Assembly: GCA_046757665.1 (NCBI GenBank)
Contig: JBHHYO010000009.1
Span: 1-63,683 of the forward strand
Direction: 5' to 3'
DNA length: 63,683 bases
From: Nitrospinales bacterium
Lineage (GTDB): Bacteria; Nitrospinota; Nitrospinia; Nitrospinales; JAJDAT01
Under the pieces are notes generated by a model, which saw only the letters and a program-made list of their open reading frames with translations, made no database searches and was not told the DNA's origin. A program made the translations under genes and the position numbers. Shown here one piece after another: positions 1 to 21,745 of the stretch. How positions within the stretch are numbered: position 1 is the first letter of the stretch; the number at the start of each line of letters is the position of its first letter.

Positions 1-96
1 GACACCTCCCCCTCCTTGTCTTTCAATCCGCCGGATTCACGGGCGTTGCGCGGTCGCATCCCTGCATTTCACGCTATATATAAGGGGATAAAAATC

Positions 97-124
97 GGAG
101 ACTGGAGACGGGAGGCTGGAGACG
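97..124 (+). repeat. Heptamer tandem repeat
   Basis: GGAGACT GGAGACG GGAGGCT GGAGACG. Confidence 0.75.
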
Positions 125-131
125 GTCAATG

Positions 132-158
132 GTCACGCTTCGACGGGCTCAGCGTGAC
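132..158. repeat. REP-like hairpin (TTCGACNNGCYCA core)
   Basis: GTCACGCT-TCGACGGGCTC-AGCGTGAC; related copies at 645-673, 20672-20698, ~303-325 and ~21714-21737. Confidence 0.75.
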
Positions 159-737
159 GGGGAGTCGGAAAAAACGGAGATCGGAGACCGGGAAAAAACG
201 GGAACCGCAAAGGCGCCAAGGGCGCAAAGAAAAATCCCCCCAGCCCCCTTCCAGAAGAAGGAGTAAATTTCAAATGGGGTTTTTCCGTGTTCATCTGTGT
301 GTCCTTCGACAGACTCAGGGCAGGCATCGGTGGTTCAACTTTTTTGCCTTTCTTTGCGGCTTTTGGTGATTTCGGTATGGTAAATTTTAATCTTCAAAAC
401 GCGGGCTTCGACATGCCAAAACCAGTTCTTACAAGTCGTTTTAAATCATGCGGATACAGGACAAAATGCGATCCGGTTTTTGGGGCGTTTTGCCGCGAAA
501 ATCGTTCATTTTTTACCTGACCGGCAACCGAAGAAACGGCTTGTGGCGCAAGGGGTTGGCGGGTTTGCTACCTGACGTTTCGACTATTTCGTTCCTCGTT
601 TTTCAAAAAATTTTTTTTCGGAAAAAACGGCTACGGTCAGGCGCTGTCACGGTTCGACGGGCTCACCATGACAGGAATGCGGGCGGGGCCGGTCAGGTAT
701 GGCGGTTTTTTGCGCGGCCCGCCTGGTCGCGGGGTTT

Positions 738-3233
738 TTACAAATCCCGATGTCCTCGGACATGATGGGTGTAGCCGTCGGTGGTGATGGTGATGGCGCC
801 GTCGAGGTCGGTGCGCCACACGGTTGCGCCGAAATCCGTGTAGCGTTGCACAACCCGGGGGTCGGGGTGGTGGAACGGGTTGTGGTAGCCGCTGGAGAAA
901 AACACCGTCCTGGGGCGGACGGCTTTGATGAATGCTTCGGTATTGGAAAACCGGCTTCCATGGTGCGGCGCTTTGAGAAAATCGGCGCGCAGGGCCGCCC
1001 GGTTTTCGATGAGATAACGCTCCTCGCCGGCTCCGATGTCGGCGGCAAACAACATGCTGAACTCCCGGTAGTCCAGCCGCAGTACCGTCGATAGCGTGTT
1101 GCTGACGCGGGTTTGCCCGTTTTGTTTTTCCCGGCGGGCGTAATCGGTGTTGGGGTGAAGCGGCGTGATTTGTACTTCTCCCACGCGAATCGGCCGTCCC
1201 GGTTGCAGGGTAATCGGCTCGGCGTTGCGCGCCAGGGCCTTGCGGCGGAACGTGGTCAAGCGGGCGTCGCCGATTCCCGTGTCCCGGTAGAGCAGGTGGC
1301 CGACCGGCATCAGGTCGAGCAGGGATTCCAGGCCGTCGATGTGGTCGTCGTCCGAGTGGGTCGCCGCCATGTAGTCGATTTTGCCGACGCCGCGGTTCCA
1401 CAGCGTCGGGGCGACGACGAAGCGTCCCACGTCGAAACTATCGCCGAAAAATCCGCCGCCGTCGATCAACAGGGTTTGATGGTTGGGAAATTCGATGAAG
1501 ATCGACTCGCCGCCGCCGACATCCAGAATGGAGACGGAGAGTTTTTCCGAGGGCCATTGCGGAAACCGCGGCCAGACCATCCATGTGACAACCCACAGGC
1601 CGGCGGCCATCAAGCCGTATGCCGCGGGCTTGAGCCAGGGCGGCGGAGGCGTCTCCGGTTGCCTTTGGTTCTCCCGGTATTTGTGGAGCCAGTAAACCGC
1701 GCCGAACAAGGTCGCATAATACAAGGCAAACCAGAGGTGCGGCGGCGTGGCGAGAAATACGGAAGCGTAGGGCAGTGAGGCGAAAAAATGCGGCACGATA
1801 AGAAAAATCTTCAGTAATACGGAAATGACCGGCATGAACGGCGCCGCCAGGGGTTGCCAGAGCAGGCCCAGCGCGAGCGCCAGAAGGGCCAGGGGAATCA
1901 GCGCCATCGCAAAGGGCACAATCACGATGTTCAGGAAAAATCCGACGAGGCTGACGCGGTTGAAATGAATCAGCAAAATGGGCAGTACGCCCAGGTTGGC
2001 GGCCAGGGTGACCCATACGGTGGTTTTCAGGTATTTCTCATACCAACCGGGTTTCCTCATGCGGTCGATGGCGTCCTTTTTTTGCTTGCGGATGAAATGG
2101 AGGGCAAACAAAATGCTGAACACCGCCATGAACGACAACTGAAACCCGACGTCCGGAATGGCTCTGGGGTTCCACGACAACACGGCGAATGCCGCCAGCA
2201 GAAGCGCGTTGAACAACCGGTGACCCCGGTCGACCAGGATCGCCAGCAGGAAAACGAAAATCATGATTCCGGCGCGCAGGGCGGAAACTTTTGCTCCGAC
2301 GAGGATTCCATAGAACGAGAGCGGCAACAGGGTGAAGAGGATGGCGGCCTTCCGGGCTTTCCCGGCCCGCGCCGCCGACGGAAAATAGCGGCAGAAGAAA
2401 GAAAACAAAAGGGGGTAAGCAACAAGGTAAGAGGCGAGGGAAACAAAGCCGATATGCAGTCCCGAAACCGCCATCAGGTGGGCGATGCCGGCGGCGCGGT
2501 AATCTTCCTTGATGTCGTCCGGCAGTGTCTGTTTTTCCCCCAGGAGCATGGCCTTCAGCAAACCGGCTTTCCGCGGGCTCAAATGGCGGTCGATCGTGCG
2601 AAACATGTTTTCCCGGGCGGCGTGGCGCAAGGTGACAAAGGCGGACAGGGGAACGGCGCCGATTTTCTCCACGGATTCGGGTTTGGAAACGTTGCCGATG
2701 ACGCTGATTCCCCTCGATTCCAGATAGCGGATGTAGTCGAAGCGGCCGGGATTTTTGAAGTTTCGCGGACGTTTCAACCGCACGTTGTGGATGCGTAGCA
2801 AGTCGCCCGGGCGCAGGAAGTTTGCCGCGGAATATAAAACGATCCTGGCGCGGCCGCTGACAGGGACCGCGGCGCTTTCGCGATAACGGATTTTCGCCAG
2901 CTCGATGACGTAATGCGTCTGCCGGGGAGGTTTTTGGGTAACCGTGAGGAGATGCCCGGTGACCTCCGCCCGCCGGCCGTCCTGCAAGTGGAGCAGAATA
3001 TGGTCGTCCGGCCGAAAATGCTCCGGCAGGCCGGGCGCCAGGCAACCGAGGCCGAACAAGCCGGTTAACAAGGCCCAACTCACGGGCCGATTCTTTTTGC
3101 GCCGGGCGATTAAGGCGATTGCGGTGATGGTGAGGACAAGGGTGGGACAGGGAAACAGGAAGTGCCTGGAGGCGGGGAGCGTGGTTAATATCCCGCCGGC
3201 GTAAACCAGGAAAAAAGGAAGCAGGGAACCCAT
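738..3233 (-). CDS. comEC: DNA internalization competence protein ComEC/Rec2
   Basis: DUF4131-like N-terminus (RNFKNPGRFDY), Competence domain (HLMAVSGLHIG), metallo-beta-lactamase C-terminus (LDVGGGES, THSDDDHIDG, PHHGS, NPFHHP). Confidence 0.95.
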   Translation of the reverse strand: MGSLLPFFLVYAGGILTTLPASRHFLFPCPTLVLTITAIALIARRKKNRPVSWALLTGLFGLGCLAPGLPEHFRPDDHILLHLQDGRRAEVTGHLLTVTQKPPRQTHYVIELAKIRYRESAAVPVSGRARIVLYSAANFLRPGDLLRIHNVRLKRPRNFKNPGRFDYIRYLESRGISVIGNVSKPESVEKIGAVPLSAFVTLRHAARENMFRTIDRHLSPRKAGLLKAMLLGEKQTLPDDIKEDYRAAGIAHLMAVSGLHIGFVSLASYLVAYPLLFSFFCRYFPSAARAGKARKAAILFTLLPLSFYGILVGAKVSALRAGIMIFVFLLAILVDRGHRLFNALLLAAFAVLSWNPRAIPDVGFQLSFMAVFSILFALHFIRKQKKDAIDRMRKPGWYEKYLKTTVWVTLAANLGVLPILLIHFNRVSLVGFFLNIVIVPFAMALIPLALLALALGLLWQPLAAPFMPVISVLLKIFLIVPHFFASLPYASVFLATPPHLWFALYYATLFGAVYWLHKYRENQRQPETPPPPWLKPAAYGLMAAGLWVVTWMVWPRFPQWPSEKLSVSILDVGGGESIFIEFPNHQTLLIDGGGFFGDSFDVGRFVVAPTLWNRGVGKIDYMAATHSDDDHIDGLESLLDLMPVGHLLYRDTGIGDARLTTFRRKALARNAEPITLQPGRPIRVGEVQITPLHPNTDYARREKQNGQTRVSNTLSTVLRLDYREFSMLFAADIGAGEERYLIENRAALRADFLKAPHHGSRFSNTEAFIKAVRPRTVFFSSGYHNPFHHPDPRVVQRYTDFGATVWRTDLDGAITITTDGYTHHVRGHRDL

Positions 3234-16335: not shown

Positions 16336-17277
16336 ATGGAAATCGATTTGTTGCTCATCATATCCGGTGTAGCTCTGCTTTTCCTGGGCGGCGAAATTCT
16401 CGTAACCGGAAGCGTGCGCATTGCACAAAGATTCCAGGTCAGCACATTTGTAATCGGCGCGACGGTGATAGGGTTTGGAACCTCTTCGCCCGAGTTGGCG
16501 GTGAGCATCTCCGCGACCCTCAAGGACGCGCCGGAAATGGCGCTGGGCAACGCCATTGGAAGCAATATCGCCAACGTGTGTCTGGTCCTGGGGGCCACCG
16601 CTTTGCTGACCCCCCTGTTTATTGCGAAACTTCGCTTTAAGCAGGAAACCCCTTCTCTGCTGTTTGTCACCTTTTTGATTTTATACATGGCCTGGGACTT
16701 CTATCTGAGTTTCAATGAAGGTCTCGTGTTGCTGTTCCTCCTGGCCGCCTATCTCTGGATGGCGTTCAGAAAAAGAGAAGAGACGGAGATGGAAATCGAG
16801 GAAACAGGGAAATACTTTGCTCAAAGCGGCATGGGCGTTCAGGTTCTTCTCATCGTAGCGGGATTAGGCCTGCTGGTTACCGGCGCCAACTGGCTGGTCC
16901 AGGGTAGCATCGGTGTTGCCCGGCTTTTTGGCGTCAGCGAATGGTTGATCGGCATAACCATTGTCGCTGTCGGAACGAGCCTGCCCGAAATCGTCGCTTC
17001 GATGATTGCCGCCCGCCGAGGGCACAGCGAAATGGCCATCGGCAACATTTATGGAAGCAACATCTTTAATATTTTAATGGTCCTCGGCGCCACCGCCGTC
17101 GTTCATCCCCTTCAAATCAAGGAATCCATCCATCCCGACCTCATGATCAGCACCGGCCTGACGTGTCTGTTCCTGATTTTTCTACGGATCGGCCACGGAC
17201 TTTCCAAGTGGGATGGCGGTTTACTGCTGATTTGCTACACCGCCTATATCGGCGTGAAAGCCGTGGGGATCATCTGA
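16336..17277 (+). CDS. Calcium/sodium antiporter (YrbG/CaCA family)
   Basis: Two alpha repeats: GTSSPEL...GNAIGSN and GTSLPEI...GNIYGSN. Confidence 0.93.
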   Translation: MEIDLLLIISGVALLFLGGEILVTGSVRIAQRFQVSTFVIGATVIGFGTSSPELAVSISATLKDAPEMALGNAIGSNIANVCLVLGATALLTPLFIAKLRFKQETPSLLFVTFLILYMAWDFYLSFNEGLVLLFLLAAYLWMAFRKREETEMEIEETGKYFAQSGMGVQVLLIVAGLGLLVTGANWLVQGSIGVARLFGVSEWLIGITIVAVGTSLPEIVASMIAARRGHSEMAIGNIYGSNIFNILMVLGATAVVHPLQIKESIHPDLMISTGLTCLFLIFLRIGHGLSKWDGGLLLICYTAYIGVKAVGII

Positions 17278-19261
17278 CGGCGGCCGCAAGGGGTTTGGGC
17301 GGCCTGACGTTACGAAATTTCCACAATTGTTTTTTGTAATAGGGTTTGTCCGGAGCGAGCTCGATCGCGGTGCGAATGTTGTTGATGGCAAGCTTCGTCT
17401 CGCCCTTGACATAATAAATTTCCGAAAGCGTGTCTATATATTCCGGCTTGCTGGGGTGGGCCGCCAGGGTTTTGTTGGAAAGCAACATGGCCTCATCCAG
17501 ATGCACTCTTTTTTTGGCGTACAGCCAGGCCAGGCGGTTCATGGCGTTAAAAAAATCGTCACGCGATTGTATCGCCTTTTTGCAATGGCCGATGGCGATG
17601 GTGTAGTAACCTTTCTTGCTGAAAGCCCGGCACAGCTTGTAAAAAACCTGGCCGTTTTGCGGCTCGATTTTGGACGCGGCGGTGAGCACCTTGATGGCGG
17701 AGTCCAGTTTGCCGTCATCGATCAGGGCCGTTGCCAGGGACACATGGCGCCGGACATTTCGCGGCTGGGCCGGCAATGCTTTTTGGAATTCCTCGGCGGC
17801 CCGTCCGGGTATTCCCTTGGCCAGCAGAACCTTCCCCAGCTCAAAATGAACGTCCGGGTTGCGGTAGTTTAACCGGACCGCGTTTTTCAGGGCCGACAGC
17901 GCCTCGTCCCATTTTTTTTCGGCGGCGGATAGCCGGCCAAGGTAAAAAAAGGTCTCGCCGTTTTTCGGGTTCAGGTTCATAGCTTGTTCGAACGCCTTCC
18001 TCGCGTCTTGCGGTTTCCCCTTGTCCAAGTGAATCTTCCCCAGTTGCAAATGAACATGGGCGTTCTTCGGTTCCAGCGCCCCGGCGGCCTGATAATGCTT
18101 TAACGACTCATCCAGCGCCCCCTTCTGAAAATACCAGTCCGCCAGGCGAATCCGGGCCGGAAAGTTTCGCGGAAACAGTTTGACTACGGTCTTGAATTCC
18201 CTGGCGGCTTCTTCTCCCCGCCGCGTTTTGAGAAGCAGGTTTCCCAGGGAGAGATGAAGCTCCGGGTCCCCTTTCTTCAAGCGAATGGCTTCCCGGATTT
18301 CCTTGATGGCGCGAGTCAGTTCCCCCTTCTCGGCGTACAGGTCGCTGAGCGCTTTGTGGGATGCGTAAAAACCGGGATTCAACTTGATGGCCATGGCAAG
18401 GTTGGCGACGGCCTTTTCCGGAGCGTTTTCTTTAAGTTGAACGATCCCCAGGCCGTAAAACGCCTGCGAGTTGGTCGGGTCGATATCGATAACCATTTGA
18501 TACGTATCCCTGGCCTTCTTCAACTGCCCCATGGCGTCCAGCGTTTTTGCCAGCTTGAGGTGGTAGCCACTTTCCGAAGGATTCAACTCGATCGACTTTT
18601 GAAACTGCTCGGATGCCTTGGCAAACTGGTTTTCTCTGAGATAAACCTCCCCCAGGCCGGCATGGCCTTGCGCGCTGTTTTCGGAGGTTGCGAGCGCTTT
18701 TTTAAACTCCGCCTTCGCGGCGGCAAACTTGTTTTCCTCAAGCAAGGCATATCCTCTGGATAGGGAGGGGTCCGGCGTGTCGGTGGACAATTTCGGATAA
18801 AGAAGGCCGACCCCAAGCGCCGCCAGAACAATAACGCCAACCACCGACTTGACGGGGAATCCGCTCTGCTCCAGGGAAGAGGCGGTTCTTTTCCGTTGCG
18901 CTGATCCGGAGGGATGGACGGCGCTCTTTTTCTCCAGCGGCCGGACGGGGGCATCGACCATTTTACACTTCCCCTCAAAACTGGACCCCTCGTCAATCAC
19001 CAGATGGAAAGTCGAAATGTCTCCGATCAAATGGCTTTCGCTGGCCAGGGTGATCTTGTTTTTCGCATGAATATTGCCGCGGATTTCACCCATGTTGGTG
19101 ACATCGTAAGTTTTGATGTCGCCGAGAACCTTGCCTCCCTTGTTGACGATAAAATGGTCCGCGGAAAAAACTTCTCCCTCCAGCTCGGCTCCAAAATGGA
19201 TAACCCCCTTGACCCACAAAGTGCCTACCAGCTTGACGCCCTGTTCAAAATAGGAATCCAT
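17270..19261 (-). CDS. Bactofilin domain-TM-TPR fusion protein
   Basis: First ~100 aa show the bactofilin beta-helix pattern ending IDEGSSFEGKCKM, followed by a TM segment (VVGVIVLAALGVGLLY) and ~13-14 TPR units. Confidence 0.8.
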   Translation of the reverse strand: MDSYFEQGVKLVGTLWVKGVIHFGAELEGEVFSADHFIVNKGGKVLGDIKTYDVTNMGEIRGNIHAKNKITLASESHLIGDISTFHLVIDEGSSFEGKCKMVDAPVRPLEKKSAVHPSGSAQRKRTASSLEQSGFPVKSVVGVIVLAALGVGLLYPKLSTDTPDPSLSRGYALLEENKFAAAKAEFKKALATSENSAQGHAGLGEVYLRENQFAKASEQFQKSIELNPSESGYHLKLAKTLDAMGQLKKARDTYQMVIDIDPTNSQAFYGLGIVQLKENAPEKAVANLAMAIKLNPGFYASHKALSDLYAEKGELTRAIKEIREAIRLKKGDPELHLSLGNLLLKTRRGEEAAREFKTVVKLFPRNFPARIRLADWYFQKGALDESLKHYQAAGALEPKNAHVHLQLGKIHLDKGKPQDARKAFEQAMNLNPKNGETFFYLGRLSAAEKKWDEALSALKNAVRLNYRNPDVHFELGKVLLAKGIPGRAAEEFQKALPAQPRNVRRHVSLATALIDDGKLDSAIKVLTAASKIEPQNGQVFYKLCRAFSKKGYYTIAIGHCKKAIQSRDDFFNAMNRLAWLYAKKRVHLDEAMLLSNKTLAAHPSKPEYIDTLSEIYYVKGETKLAINNIRTAIELAPDKPYYKKQLWKFRNVRPPKPLAAAVR

Positions 19262-19519
19262 AATGTTTCTCGGAGGCCCCCTTAACTTTCAAAGAGTTTC
19301 ATACTAGCAAAATTGTCCGGACCGCACAACTTGGGCGGCCGGGGCTTTCCCCGTCTTGACGGGGAAATGACGGCGAGCGGAAGGGACGTCGTCTGCCGGC
19401 GTGGCGGCGATTTTTCCGCGAACCATTGATAAATCATTCGAGACTTGGTATTTTAGCATCCACGATCACATCTGCTGTCACCCATCTCTCTGACATTGCA
19501 AAATCATTTGGAGTCACCC

Positions 19520-20242
19520 ATGAGAAGAAGCGACGGTCGCGCCGGCGACGAAATGCGCAAAATAAAGATCACGAAAAACTACATCTCCCATCCGCGAGGT
19601 TCCGTCCTCATGCAAATGGGGCATACGAAAGTCATCTGCACCGCCAGCGTGGAGGAAAAAGTGCCGCCCTTCATGCGCGGCGAGAACCGCGGCTGGGTCA
19701 CCGCCGAATACTCCATGCTCCCCGGCGCCACCCATACCCGCACGGTCCGCGAAGCCGCCCGCGGAAAACTTTCCGGAAGAACCCAGGAAATTCAGAGACT
19801 GGTGGGCCGCGCCATACGGGCCGTCACCGACCTGAAAGCCCTGGGCGAACGCACGGTCTGGCTCGACTGCGACGTCATTCAGGCGGACGGCGGCACCCGG
19901 TGCGCCTCCATCACCGGCGCCTTTGTCGCCTTCTGCCTTGCCCTGAAAGCCCTCAAAAAAGAAAAACTCATCGACACCCTCCCCATCAAGGATTTCGTCG
20001 CCGCCGTCAGTGTCGGACTCGTCGACGAAAAAAAACTCCTCGACCTGGACTATTCCGAGGATTCCACCGCCGGTGTGGATTTGAACGTCGTCAAAACCGC
20101 TTCCGGAAAATTCGTGGAAATCCAGGGCACCGCGGAGAGCCATCCCTTTGACGACAAACAACTGTCCGGGATGCTGGCCCTGGCGGATAAAGGCATCAAG
20201 GAACTCGTCGTCTCGCAAAAAAAGATCGTCGGCGCCTTTTGA
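19520..20242 (+). CDS. rph: Ribonuclease PH
   Basis: [47 protein letters not shown]. Confidence 0.97.
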
Positions 20243-20249
20243 CCCGCTT

Positions 20250-20866
20250 GCCTGACCGAATCGCCCGCATCCGCCACCCGCTCGATTGCGCTTGACCTTG
20301 ATTGATCGCCGGATACGGGTCAGCCCATCCCACCCCGGCCCTGGGCCGGCCTGACCGGAGCCGGTTTTCGCGAAAAAAAATTTTTTAAAAAACGAGGAAC
20401 GAAATAGTCGAAACGTCAGGCCATAAAACCACCAACCCCTTGCGCCACAACCCGTTTTCCCGGTTGACGGTCAGGTAAAAAATCAACGAATTTCGCGGAA
20501 AACCGCAAAAAAACCGGATCGGATTTTGTCCTATATCTAATTGATTCCAAAATAGTTATAGAAACCAGTTTTGGCATGTCGAACCCCGCCGTTTGAAGAT
20601 TAAAATTTACCATGCCAAAATCACCACCGAGGCGCCGAGACACGGATTTCGCGGCGAGCGTTGCCCGCCTTGTCATGGTGGGCTTGTCGAACCATGACGT
20701 CCGACTGCGCTGTCTGGAGCTTGATCTCAGTCGAAAGTTTAGCCCTCTTCCCGCAGGCGTTGCCCGCCTCCATTTTTTTATCCCTTACATATAGCGCGAA
20801 ATGCAGGTATGCGATGGCGGAGGCCCATTTAATTCGGCGGGTTGAAAGACAAAGAGGGGTAGGTGT
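20250..20866. repeat. Dispersed non-coding modular element, copy 2 (inverted relative to copy 1)
   Basis: Reverse-complement match to 2-699 in three blocks; a 13-bp direct repeat GCGTTGCCCGCCT (20658-20670, 20757-20769) flanks part of its variable spacer. Confidence 0.9.
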
Positions 20867-20900
20867 GGCGCGGCAACCCATCGGGTCTGGTCAACCCCTG

Positions 20901-21507
20901 GTTCCCACGCTCTCAGGCTGTGTCACAACAGGATTAAAAAAAGCGGAGGTAGTGTTTTTTGAAAATATGGATTGGTCAAAACAGACGCCGTTCTTAATCC
21001 AACCTTTTTTCGACCCGATTAAGCGTTATCTTCGTTAACCGGGCCTGTTTTTTTAAACGATAGCTTAATGGATTACCCTACGGACAAACATAACAATCGT
21101 TATTCCGGTCGTAGCGAAACCGGTCGTTCGTATTGGCGTAGCCCGCATCTTACTACCGTCTACAAATAGCGTGTTGCCTTCGATTAAACCCAGCTTAAGG
21201 CACAACCGGGCGCATTGCTTGAGAACGTTTTTAAGGCCCTGGGAGTGATCCTTTCTGAAGCGCGCAATGGTTTTATGATCCGGCTTTAACCCGCCCATCA
21301 GCCACATAGCGGAAACAGTTGGCTTTGCCGACGGTCTCCATAGCGATAGGCCATAACATAGGTTCCTTATTCAGGGGGGGATTACAGGAGATCGCACCGA
21401 CTCAAGGCAAACATTGACGGAGCGGCGAGTGACCCTGGTTTAACTCAGCGACGCTTTGATATCAATTCATACCCGTCTATTGTGACACAGCCTGAGAGCG
21501 TGGGAAC
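20901..21507 (-). mobile_element. Internally deleted IS1182-like element within a REP-like palindrome
   Basis: Perfect 28-bp inverted repeats GTTCCCACGCTCTCAGGCTGTGTCACAA (20901-20928 / 21480-21507) enclosing a transposase fragment. Confidence 0.75.
21065..21307 (-). pseudogene. IS1182-family DDE transposase fragment
   Basis: WLMGGLKPDHKTIARFRK...LFVDGSKMRA matches the IS1182 W-L-x4-PDHxTIxxFR and first catalytic DG motifs; the rest is missing. Confidence 0.8.
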
Positions 21508-21520
21508 GAGGGGGAACAAT

Positions 21521-21745
21521 CGTCATTGCGAGGCGGCGGAGCCGACGAAGCAATCCAGAAAGGACCCATTCCCACCGGGCGTGGCCCGGCTGGATCGCCG
21601 CGCCGCCGGTGGCGGCTCGCGATGACGCCGGGGCGGCGAAGAGCGAAAAACGCAAAGGAAAATCCCCCAAACCCCCTGCCTTGAAGGGGGCTTTTCTGTG
21701 TTCATCTGTGTGCCCTTCGACAGACTCGGGGCAGGCATGGTTGCG
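21521..21745. repeat. Mosaic of REP-like repeats
   Basis: GTCATTGCGAG...GAAGCAATCC with inverted partner GGATCGCCGCG...CTCGCGATGAC; 21657-21745 is a direct, diverged copy of ~229-335. Confidence 0.75.

Follow-up and report, generated by a model that had tools for sequence, protein, structure and literature searches.

The 63,683-nt window analyzed here covers positions 1 to 63,683 of contig JBHHYO010000009.1 in the metagenome-assembled genome (MAG) of a Nitrospinales bacterium (GCA_046757665.1). It contains two copies of a modular non-coding element, situated about 20 kb apart in inverted orientation, one next to a ComEC-type competence gene and the other next to rph, the gene for RNase PH. 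Each copy is composed of three conserved blocks (A, B, and C) separated by two variable linkers, and the two belong to a family of about 40 copies in this genome. The key result, obtained at one orthologous locus, is that near-invariant islands within the element have scarcely changed between two related organisms, while the positions between them have changed freely, and the copies therefore probably act where they are located. The parts of the two window copies and the genes immediately adjoining them are as follows.

2 to 110, plus strand: block A of copy 1, with outer end ACACCTCCCCC and conserved core GCATCCCTGCATTTCACGCTATATATAAGGGG (nhmmer match over 3–109)
97 to 125, plus strand: tandem heptamer GGAGACN (period 7, 3.9 copies) at the inner edge of block A of copy 1
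111 to 362, no strand: linker 1 of copy 1, unrelated filler with a repetitive extragenic palindromic (REP)-like hairpin at 132–158 and a small repeat at 223–332
363 to 642, plus strand: block B of copy 1 (~282 nt), with invariant islands, terminating in CGGTCAGG
643 to 676, no strand: linker 2 of copy 1, class 1, with a single REP-like hairpin at 646–673
677 to 697, plus strand: block C of copy 1, ATGCGGGCGGGGCCGGTCAGG, forming the second sharp terminus
738 to 3233, minus strand: ComEC-type competence gene (Competence 1e-63, DUF4131, Lactamase_B)
19496 to 20242, plus strand: RNase PH gene rph (RNase_PH 3e-27, RNase_PH_C)
20251 to 20270, minus strand: block C of copy 2, terminating in CGGTCAGG
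20271 to 20349, no strand: linker 2 of copy 2, class 2 (79 nt), unrelated to linker 2 of copy 1
20350 to 20628, minus strand: block B of copy 2 (nhmmer 2.6e-84)
20629 to 20759, no strand: linker 1 of copy 2, with a REP-like hairpin at 20671–20698 and a small repeat of the GCGGGC..GCCCGC type
20760 to 20866, minus strand: block A of copy 2 (nhmmer 5.7e-30), with unrelated DNA beyond the terminus at 20866

Repeat finding within the window aligned the two copies as three inverted arm pairs, 478–642 with 20349–20513 (165 nt, 86% identity), 364–491 with 20499–20626 (128 nt, 80%), and 2–110 with 20758–20866 (109 nt, 77%). A short third block pairs 677–697 with 20270–20251, both of its versions terminating in CGGTCAGG. 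This agrees with an earlier note on the same DNA, which had described three colinear blocks recurring as diverged reverse complements about 20 kb apart, with coordinates correct to within a few bases and with unrelated spacers filled by REP-like hairpins. Position 2 is a genuine A terminus, as in other copies, and copy 1 is truncated merely by the start of the contig. In both copies the C block is oriented toward the neighboring gene, its end lying 41 nt from the stop of the ComEC-type gene and 9 nt from that of rph, so the note was also right to place both copies just past these stops with the same polarity.

The MAG (G000) is 2.97 Mb in size, comprises 160 contigs (hereafter C-numbers), and is 97.6% complete. 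Direct searches of it gave 40 matches with block B and 23 with block A, and nhmmer profiles made from the copies gave 42 and 40, respectively. The suggestion of a repeat family rather than a chance pair is thereby borne out, and the possibility that only two copies exist is disposed of. Approximately 24 copies are complete within contigs, and many others are localized at contig ends; the family thus explains many of the assembly breaks in this MAG. In Logan contigs of two public vent-metagenome runs that contain the organism, summed contig depth over positions 1–667 is 230–266, versus 11.5–16.4 in most of the adjoining unique DNA, and public metagenome contigs covering the window copies break within the element. 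About 25 kb of a compact 3-Mb genome in one non-coding family calls for explanation, and on the practical side the family should be masked or modeled when the MAG is annotated.

All complete copies keep the order of block A (~107 nt), linker 1 (44–790 nt), block B (~282 nt), linker 2 (~35–80 nt), and block C (~20 nt), the element as a whole measuring 0.5–0.85 kb. Similarity on the A side ends abruptly at ACACCTACCCCC in 24 copies, and on the C side it ends at ...GCGGGCGnnnCGGTCAGG (27 B/C ends examined). A second CGGTCAGG is present in 26 of the 27 copies examined, so that this word brackets linker 2 as a direct repeat. The element lacks terminal inverted repeats: the termini ACACCTACCCCC and ...CGGTCAGG have in common just CCT(G)ACC (6/7). 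Nor is there a target duplication, the longest word common to the 20-nt flanks being 3–5 nt in 14/14 copies, or a conserved flanking tetra- or pentanucleotide at the A or C ends. Inverted CCTGACSG pairs occur 31 times within elements and three times elsewhere, each time in a gene, which means that there is no free-standing MITE (miniature inverted-repeat transposable element) with these ends. As the earlier note had stated for the window, the copies contain no credible open reading frame (ORF) and no transposase.

The linkers are mosaics. Linker 1 opens with the GGAGACN heptamers, whose number differs between copies, and continues with hairpins and small repeats that are found elsewhere too, in either orientation; in one case it holds an IS5-like remnant. 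At least four unrelated classes of linker 2 can be distinguished, each common to several loci, e.g., class 2 also occurs in copies on C17 (two copies), C22, C41, C76, C88, and C106. Block A carries direct CCGCC repeats and not a hairpin, as read by eye from the alignment, and hairpins are confined to the variable linkers. REP-like hairpins are common in the whole MAG (one type has ~40 matches and a second has 21, nearly all of them intergenic). The filler repeat at 223–332 has a stand-alone copy (87–88%) at window positions 21651–21743, and hence the fillers of the linkers are independent small repeats. The DNA directly adjoining the A end of copy 2 (20895–21513) has 37-nt terminal inverted repeats (95%) and encloses a decayed IS5/IS1182-like remnant with a DUF772 fragment at 21065–21307; a DDE_Tnp_1_6 remnant within linker 1 of the copy at C6:57816 is possibly of the same insertion sequence (IS) type.

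The blocks themselves are conserved unevenly. Pairwise identity of the 22 complete B blocks, which form two subtypes, ranges from 0.63 to 0.89 with a median of 0.75, and the differences are clustered in patches between near-invariant islands: GTAAATTTTAATCTTCAAA; CCGCGAAA...TTTTTTACCTGAC; and CCTGACGTTTCGACTATTTCGTTCCTCGTTTTT followed by an A-run/T-run. The 25-mer TTCGACTATTTCGTTCCTCGTTTTT occurs 33 times in the MAG with at most three mismatches, 19 of these occurrences being exact, and the islands have no near-match or near-complement elsewhere in the genome save two chance-level M1 matches. Block B has a GC content of 39–51%, versus 58–70% in the comEC coding DNA. The power of its WW dinucleotides peaks at 11.5 bp, and in this periodicity 18 of the 22 B copies rank above the 95th percentile whether the reference is shuffled sequence or a set of 339 other intergenic stretches. 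Four CCTGAC(C/G)G sites, two direct and two inverted, are arranged around the A/T tract.

One metagenome carries the element on two contigs, L055 and L056. L055 is orthologous to a locus that is split in the MAG between C129 and C15; the flanks are 84–88% identical, and the element has been retained in both organisms. We defined island columns as those at least 95% identical among the other 21 paralogues. Between the orthologous B copies, 3/144 island columns differ, compared with 29/138 of the other columns (Fisher 2e-7), and between the orthologous A copies the figures are 5/51 and 21/61, respectively (p = 0.003). If transposition had been the sole constraint, copies that stayed in one place after the split would be expected to decay evenly, and the uneven decay therefore favors a function. 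Position-specific constraint between species points, moreover, to a function in place.

The same contrast bears on another account of such a family, namely that it is a purely selfish, decaying non-autonomous transposon with no host role, whose islands were kept by the needs of transposition or by gene conversion. The many dispersed intergenic copies with sharp ends and subfamilies (two B types and at least four linker-2 classes), the presence and absence of copies between relatives, the restriction to a single lineage, and the nested REP-like and IS insertions, typical of DNA that tolerates junk, all agree with it. Yet in copies that have not transposed since the split the island columns of block B change about 10 times less than the others, with block A behaving alike. 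Gene conversion, for its part, would homogenize whole tracts and does not explain why the islands alone are conserved. Finally, no two paralogues are more than 89% identical and there is no sign of recent activity, yet the 25-mer is exact in more than one-half of its occurrences. We consider a purely selfish family unlikely on these grounds.

The family has been found so far only in this genus-level lineage of Nitrospinota. None of 119 other Nitrospinota genomes contains the 25-mer, again with up to three mismatches allowed. A sequence-only profile that scores 225–248 bits in this genome gave a single weak match (15.8–25.8 bits) in each of nine of those 119 genomes, and the three of the nine that were aligned lack any island. 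BLAST of block B against 40 relatives produced nothing beyond a 26-nt chance match. Among 185,579 species genomes, a 21-mer had no matches; a 19-mer matched 16 loci in species genomes, which showed no other likeness to the two copies compared. Plasmid and phage collections gave no match, and viral contigs gave three bare word matches, two of which were examined and lacked further similarity (the third is L093). Full-text searches on Nitrospina intergenic repeats and on mosaic elements in general returned no published description of the family.

As to its history, the orthologous pair has a B identity of 0.89, no closer than the best paralogues, which places the expansion before or around the split and gives no sign of recent activity; with B identities among paralogues that reach 89% at most, the burst is probably an old one. 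On L056 the element lies beside the orthologue of C25:19614, where the MAG has plain intergenic DNA. At L056:2700–3000, block B is followed by three tandem units of linker 2 plus C, the outermost ending in CGGTCAAT and the others in CGGTCAGG, whereas copies in the MAG have one unit each. In sister-genus genomes with rph (4/4) the next ORF lies 22–46 nt downstream of that gene, and the corresponding gap here is 1,524 nt.

The explanation we prefer, tentatively and with slightly less than even confidence, is a mobile repeat, old and non-autonomous, that has since been retained as a module working at the level of DNA, by binding protein or providing bent DNA, and that in type resembles BIME, NIME, or BOX elements. 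The family may have originated when such an element was copied into intergenic DNA by an enzyme acting in trans, one that is not recognizable in this assembly. Selection would later have kept the copies as an AT-rich, intrinsically bent platform, on which the invariant islands could be fixed sites for a sequence-specific protein. It is the islands, together with the A/T tracts phased at ~11.5 bp and the four CCTGAC(C/G)G sites around the A-run/T-run, that suggest a platform at the level of DNA. The two linkers would then be tolerated landing pads for REP-like hairpins and other small repeats, and their gathering of such repeats would give the spacers their swappable look. The earlier note had offered a functional cis element or a non-autonomous mobile family; the colinear blocks, swappable linkers, and constrained positions agree with both parts, while the non-coding RNA (ncRNA) version of the proposal fared worse, as discussed below. 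If the islands are binding sites, about 40 natural baits are at hand for a novel DNA-binding or architectural protein in an uncultured lineage of nitrite oxidizers.

Several observations weigh against this explanation. The case for selection in place comes from one orthologous locus. No mobilizing enzyme was found in the assembly, although an autonomous parent could be unassembled, since many contigs end within copies. The 22 B copies have a common ancestry, so the 18 periodic ones are not 18 independent observations, and the periodicity derives largely from the conserved islands. A core resembling the site of integration host factor (IHF) occurs in copy 2, not in copy 1, and is intact in 15/22 copies by reading of the alignment; in the whole window such cores occur at chance frequency (7 found versus 5.9 expected). 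Chimeric copies, which assemblers build in repeat families, could inflate the apparent mosaicism. With regard to the empty sites that the earlier note had proposed to look for, one locus is indeed filled in L056 and empty in the MAG, but the precise empty site was not recovered, L056 ending within the element. At rph, the gene downstream differs in the sister genus, and hence there is no clean empty site there either.

Islands and variable patches that are under selection in place would also be expected of an RNA scaffold with variable guides. The elements might accordingly be a multicopy family of ncRNA genes, the islands being the functional RNA, through a protein partner or base-pairing, and the variable patches conferring specificity or serving as spacers, in the manner of guide or bridge RNAs. 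A long-range A/U-rich helix can be drawn around the first variable patch, with a C-G pair replaced by a shifted G-C between the B subtypes, and pair 57/134 has the composition CG 8, GU 6, AU 2. Past copy 1, the plus strand has at 713–731 a hairpin that resembles a terminator and carries a T run, but no terminator stands at a conserved position, and neither window copy contains a sigma-70-like promoter. The consensus folds are weak and show almost no covariation: over 284 columns, RNAalifold gave -12.07 kcal/mol (covariation -0.06) and -9.59 kcal/mol (-0.36) for the two strands, with double changes in just 4/37 and 0/19 pairs, respectively. Single copies fold no more stably than shuffles (z-scores of -1.67, -2.25, -1.41, and +0.10), and the folds differ between the window copies. 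The variable segments resemble their own flanks no more than the flanks of other copies, the longest common word being 8.21 in either comparison, and the islands have no near-complement that could serve as a target elsewhere in the genome. Rfam gave no match at gathering score over the whole window and, for six copies taken together with their flanks, none even with the threshold relaxed to E ≤ 1. Taken together, these results make an RNA role unlikely in our view.

The gene context of the copies is less regular than the window suggests. The C end faces the 3′ end of a gene in 19/30 copies and the 5′ end in 11/30 (two-sided binomial p = 0.20), a weak tendency; for the A end the numbers are 10/18 and 8/18, also not significant. 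The placement just after a stop codon with the same polarity, correct for both window copies, thus fails as a general rule. Neighbors are varied ordinary core genes, e.g., gyrB, RNase R, aconitase, tsaD, rpsB, and pfk. Toxin-antitoxin-type genes adjoin the A ends of four copies (on C54, C1, C3, and C104) and include PIN, RelB, Gp49/HigB-like with a helix-turn-helix (HTH) partner, and HTH_3 types. At C54:16311-17402 (L027), a toxin-antitoxin-type pair is flanked by a duplication of ~160 nt that spans the flank and block A.

Another regularity concerns the orientation of neighboring copies relative to each other. In six of eight neighboring pairs that share a contig, including the window pair, the C ends point at each other over 9–36 kb, and no pair has its A ends facing (0/8). 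The convergent pairs are on C2, C3, C9, C17, C39, and C90, the exceptions on C1 and C6, and the one-sided binomial test against 0.25 gives p = 0.004, post hoc. Such copies might be paired as long inverted ends or recombination sites bounding 9–36-kb segments, either invertible, as the earlier note had suggested for the ~19.5 kb between the window copies, or composite mobile units, and the two window copies have exact runs in common, the longest being 33 nt. No contig shows an inverted junction, but with contigs breaking inside the element this speaks for neither arrangement. Members of a pair, however, are not each other's closest relatives (ranks 5–8 of 23), the enclosed genes are ordinary core genes, and only eight pairs are visible in this fragmented assembly, all of which makes paired recombination sites improbable. 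At a similarly low level of credence, the elements could be oriented chromosomal landmarks, with a dedicated protein reading the islands on bent B DNA and convergent pairs bounding domains or recombination units. If true, a domesticated mobile element would have yielded a bacterial equivalent of oriented boundary or anchor sites.

It is hardly credible that the copies are multiplied relics of a gene for a small protein or of a locus resembling type I toxin-antitoxin systems. In a survey of 22 B and 16 A copies, most had interrupted frames. A frame of 65 codons, beginning with MVNFNLQ, spans B in 3/22 copies, including copy 2, and shorter pieces of it recur in others, but in 19/22 it is broken or lacks the ATG (about half have ATT at the start). 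Varying A/T run lengths shift the frame, the conserved stretches vary at none of the three codon positions, the variable ones change freely, and no hydrophobic toxin-like peptide is encoded. Elsewhere in the window, the minus strand at 17270–19261 encodes a protein of 663 residues, in which a bactofilin domain at the N-terminus precedes a long TPR array.

An old mobile repeat kept for its DNA, the explanation preferred here, would require a mobilizing enzyme. A search of the MAG for Y1 (HUH) transposases or RAYTs (PF01797) gave no matches, the control search being positive in 6/14 known genomes, and the MAG yielded no TnpB, IscB, or reverse transcriptase either. It does have three tyrosine recombinases. 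The sole IS110-family (DEDD) recombinase gene found, at C124:4859-5932 (L073), is bracketed by TCTAACAGG words and abuts an apparent tRNA 3′ end at the contig edge; it adjoins no copy and has no sequence similarity to the element. A repeat census found the large duplicated regions of the genome to be ordinary paralogous genes and not IS elements. No parent IS with matching ends was seen among the repeat census, the IS110-family gene, and the IS5-like remnants of this fragmented MAG.

Known classes of elements were compared with the family one by one. A MITE would have terminal inverted repeats, a target duplication, and a parent IS with matching ends, none of which was found in this fragmented MAG. 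A PATE or REPIN derived from IS200/IS605 is contradicted by the lack of a Y1 transposase, of a common flanking target, and of subterminal hairpins at both ends. An IS110 bridge-RNA element, in which a structured RNA of ~180 nt with covarying stems adjoins a DEDD gene, does not fit, as there is no covarying fold and the DEDD gene adjoins no copy and is dissimilar. Fixed ends and a variable middle are indeed as in BOX elements, while the inverted termini, target duplication, and tight transcript fold of the latter are missing. The CGGTCAGG bracket is direct, not inverted as in NIMEs, and forms no arrays in this genome; L056 has three units. A CRISPR leader or array, which would have identical repeats of at least 23 nt and unique spacers, can be set aside since the part common to the B end and C is just 8 nt and the "spacers" are a few reused classes with REP hairpins, and type I toxin-antitoxin long repeats since 3/22 copies keep the longest recurrent frame (65 codons) intact. 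Thus, none of the known IS ends, CRISPR leaders, or Rfam families tested (the last including group II introns, HEARO, ribozymes, and riboswitches) matches, which speaks against a possibility raised in the earlier note. Failing the defining tests of MITEs, PATEs/REPINs, BOX, and bridge-RNA elements, the family is placed apart from all of them.

The closest likenesses are nevertheless instructive. BOX elements (boxA/boxB/boxC of Streptococcus and the larger families of BOX type in S. suis), as portrayed in excerpts of PMC3049150, are likewise modular, non-coding, interspersed, intergenic, and lineage-restricted, have a variable middle with a variable number of boxB, and range from 67 to 637 bp. 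The same excerpts (PMC3049150) assign to BOX terminal inverted repeats, target duplications, and a predicted tight RNA fold, none of which occurs here, and a tandem module in place of the unrelated fillers that vary in the present family, whose conserved middle is 282 nt. NIMEs (neisserial intergenic mosaic elements, dRS3 flanking RS blocks), in the excerpted text of PMC1797815, are likewise built of short fixed brackets around variable blocks of lower GC content that belong to many families, with a GC wave and opportunistic small repeats, and a recombinase-binding role has been proposed for them. According to that text (PMC1797815), the dRS3 inverted repeat measures 20 bp, and the long arrays built by NIMEs have no large conserved core. 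The bracket here is an 8-nt direct repeat plus ~12 conserved C bases, usually occurs once, and is joined to A and B.

BIMEs bind IHF and gyrase. Excerpts of PMC2817692, PMC3333891, and PMC8049555 present the REP/BIME clusters of enterobacteria and REPINs as intergenic mosaics, composed of hairpins and linkers and frequently placed next to the 3′ ends of genes, that form long-lived populations, as here, and REP/BIME populations are there thought to bind nucleoid proteins; in these families REP-like hairpins are the building blocks, whereas in the present one they are passengers of the linkers. MITEs and PATEs, as far as excerpts of PMC2229807, PMC3184786, and PMC3049150 describe them, are similarly non-autonomous, non-coding, multicopy, intergenic, and AT-rich relative to the genome. 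The present element differs from them in lacking a terminal inverted repeat, a target duplication, a flanking target, and a recognizable parent IS. The HEARO or omega RNA of IscB and the bridge RNA of IS110 reach tens of copies per genome and have a conserved scaffold, variable segments, and no inverted termini. Here, by contrast, Rfam gives no match, the fold is neither stable nor covarying, and no IscB or TnpB was found; Rfam is not known to include a bridge-RNA family, so for bridge RNAs the comparison draws on the fold tests. Among families of this sort (REP, BOX, Correia, MITEs), most consist of short palindromic elements for which a known transposase accounts, and against this background the family described here, without a recognizable parent, stands out as large and asymmetric.

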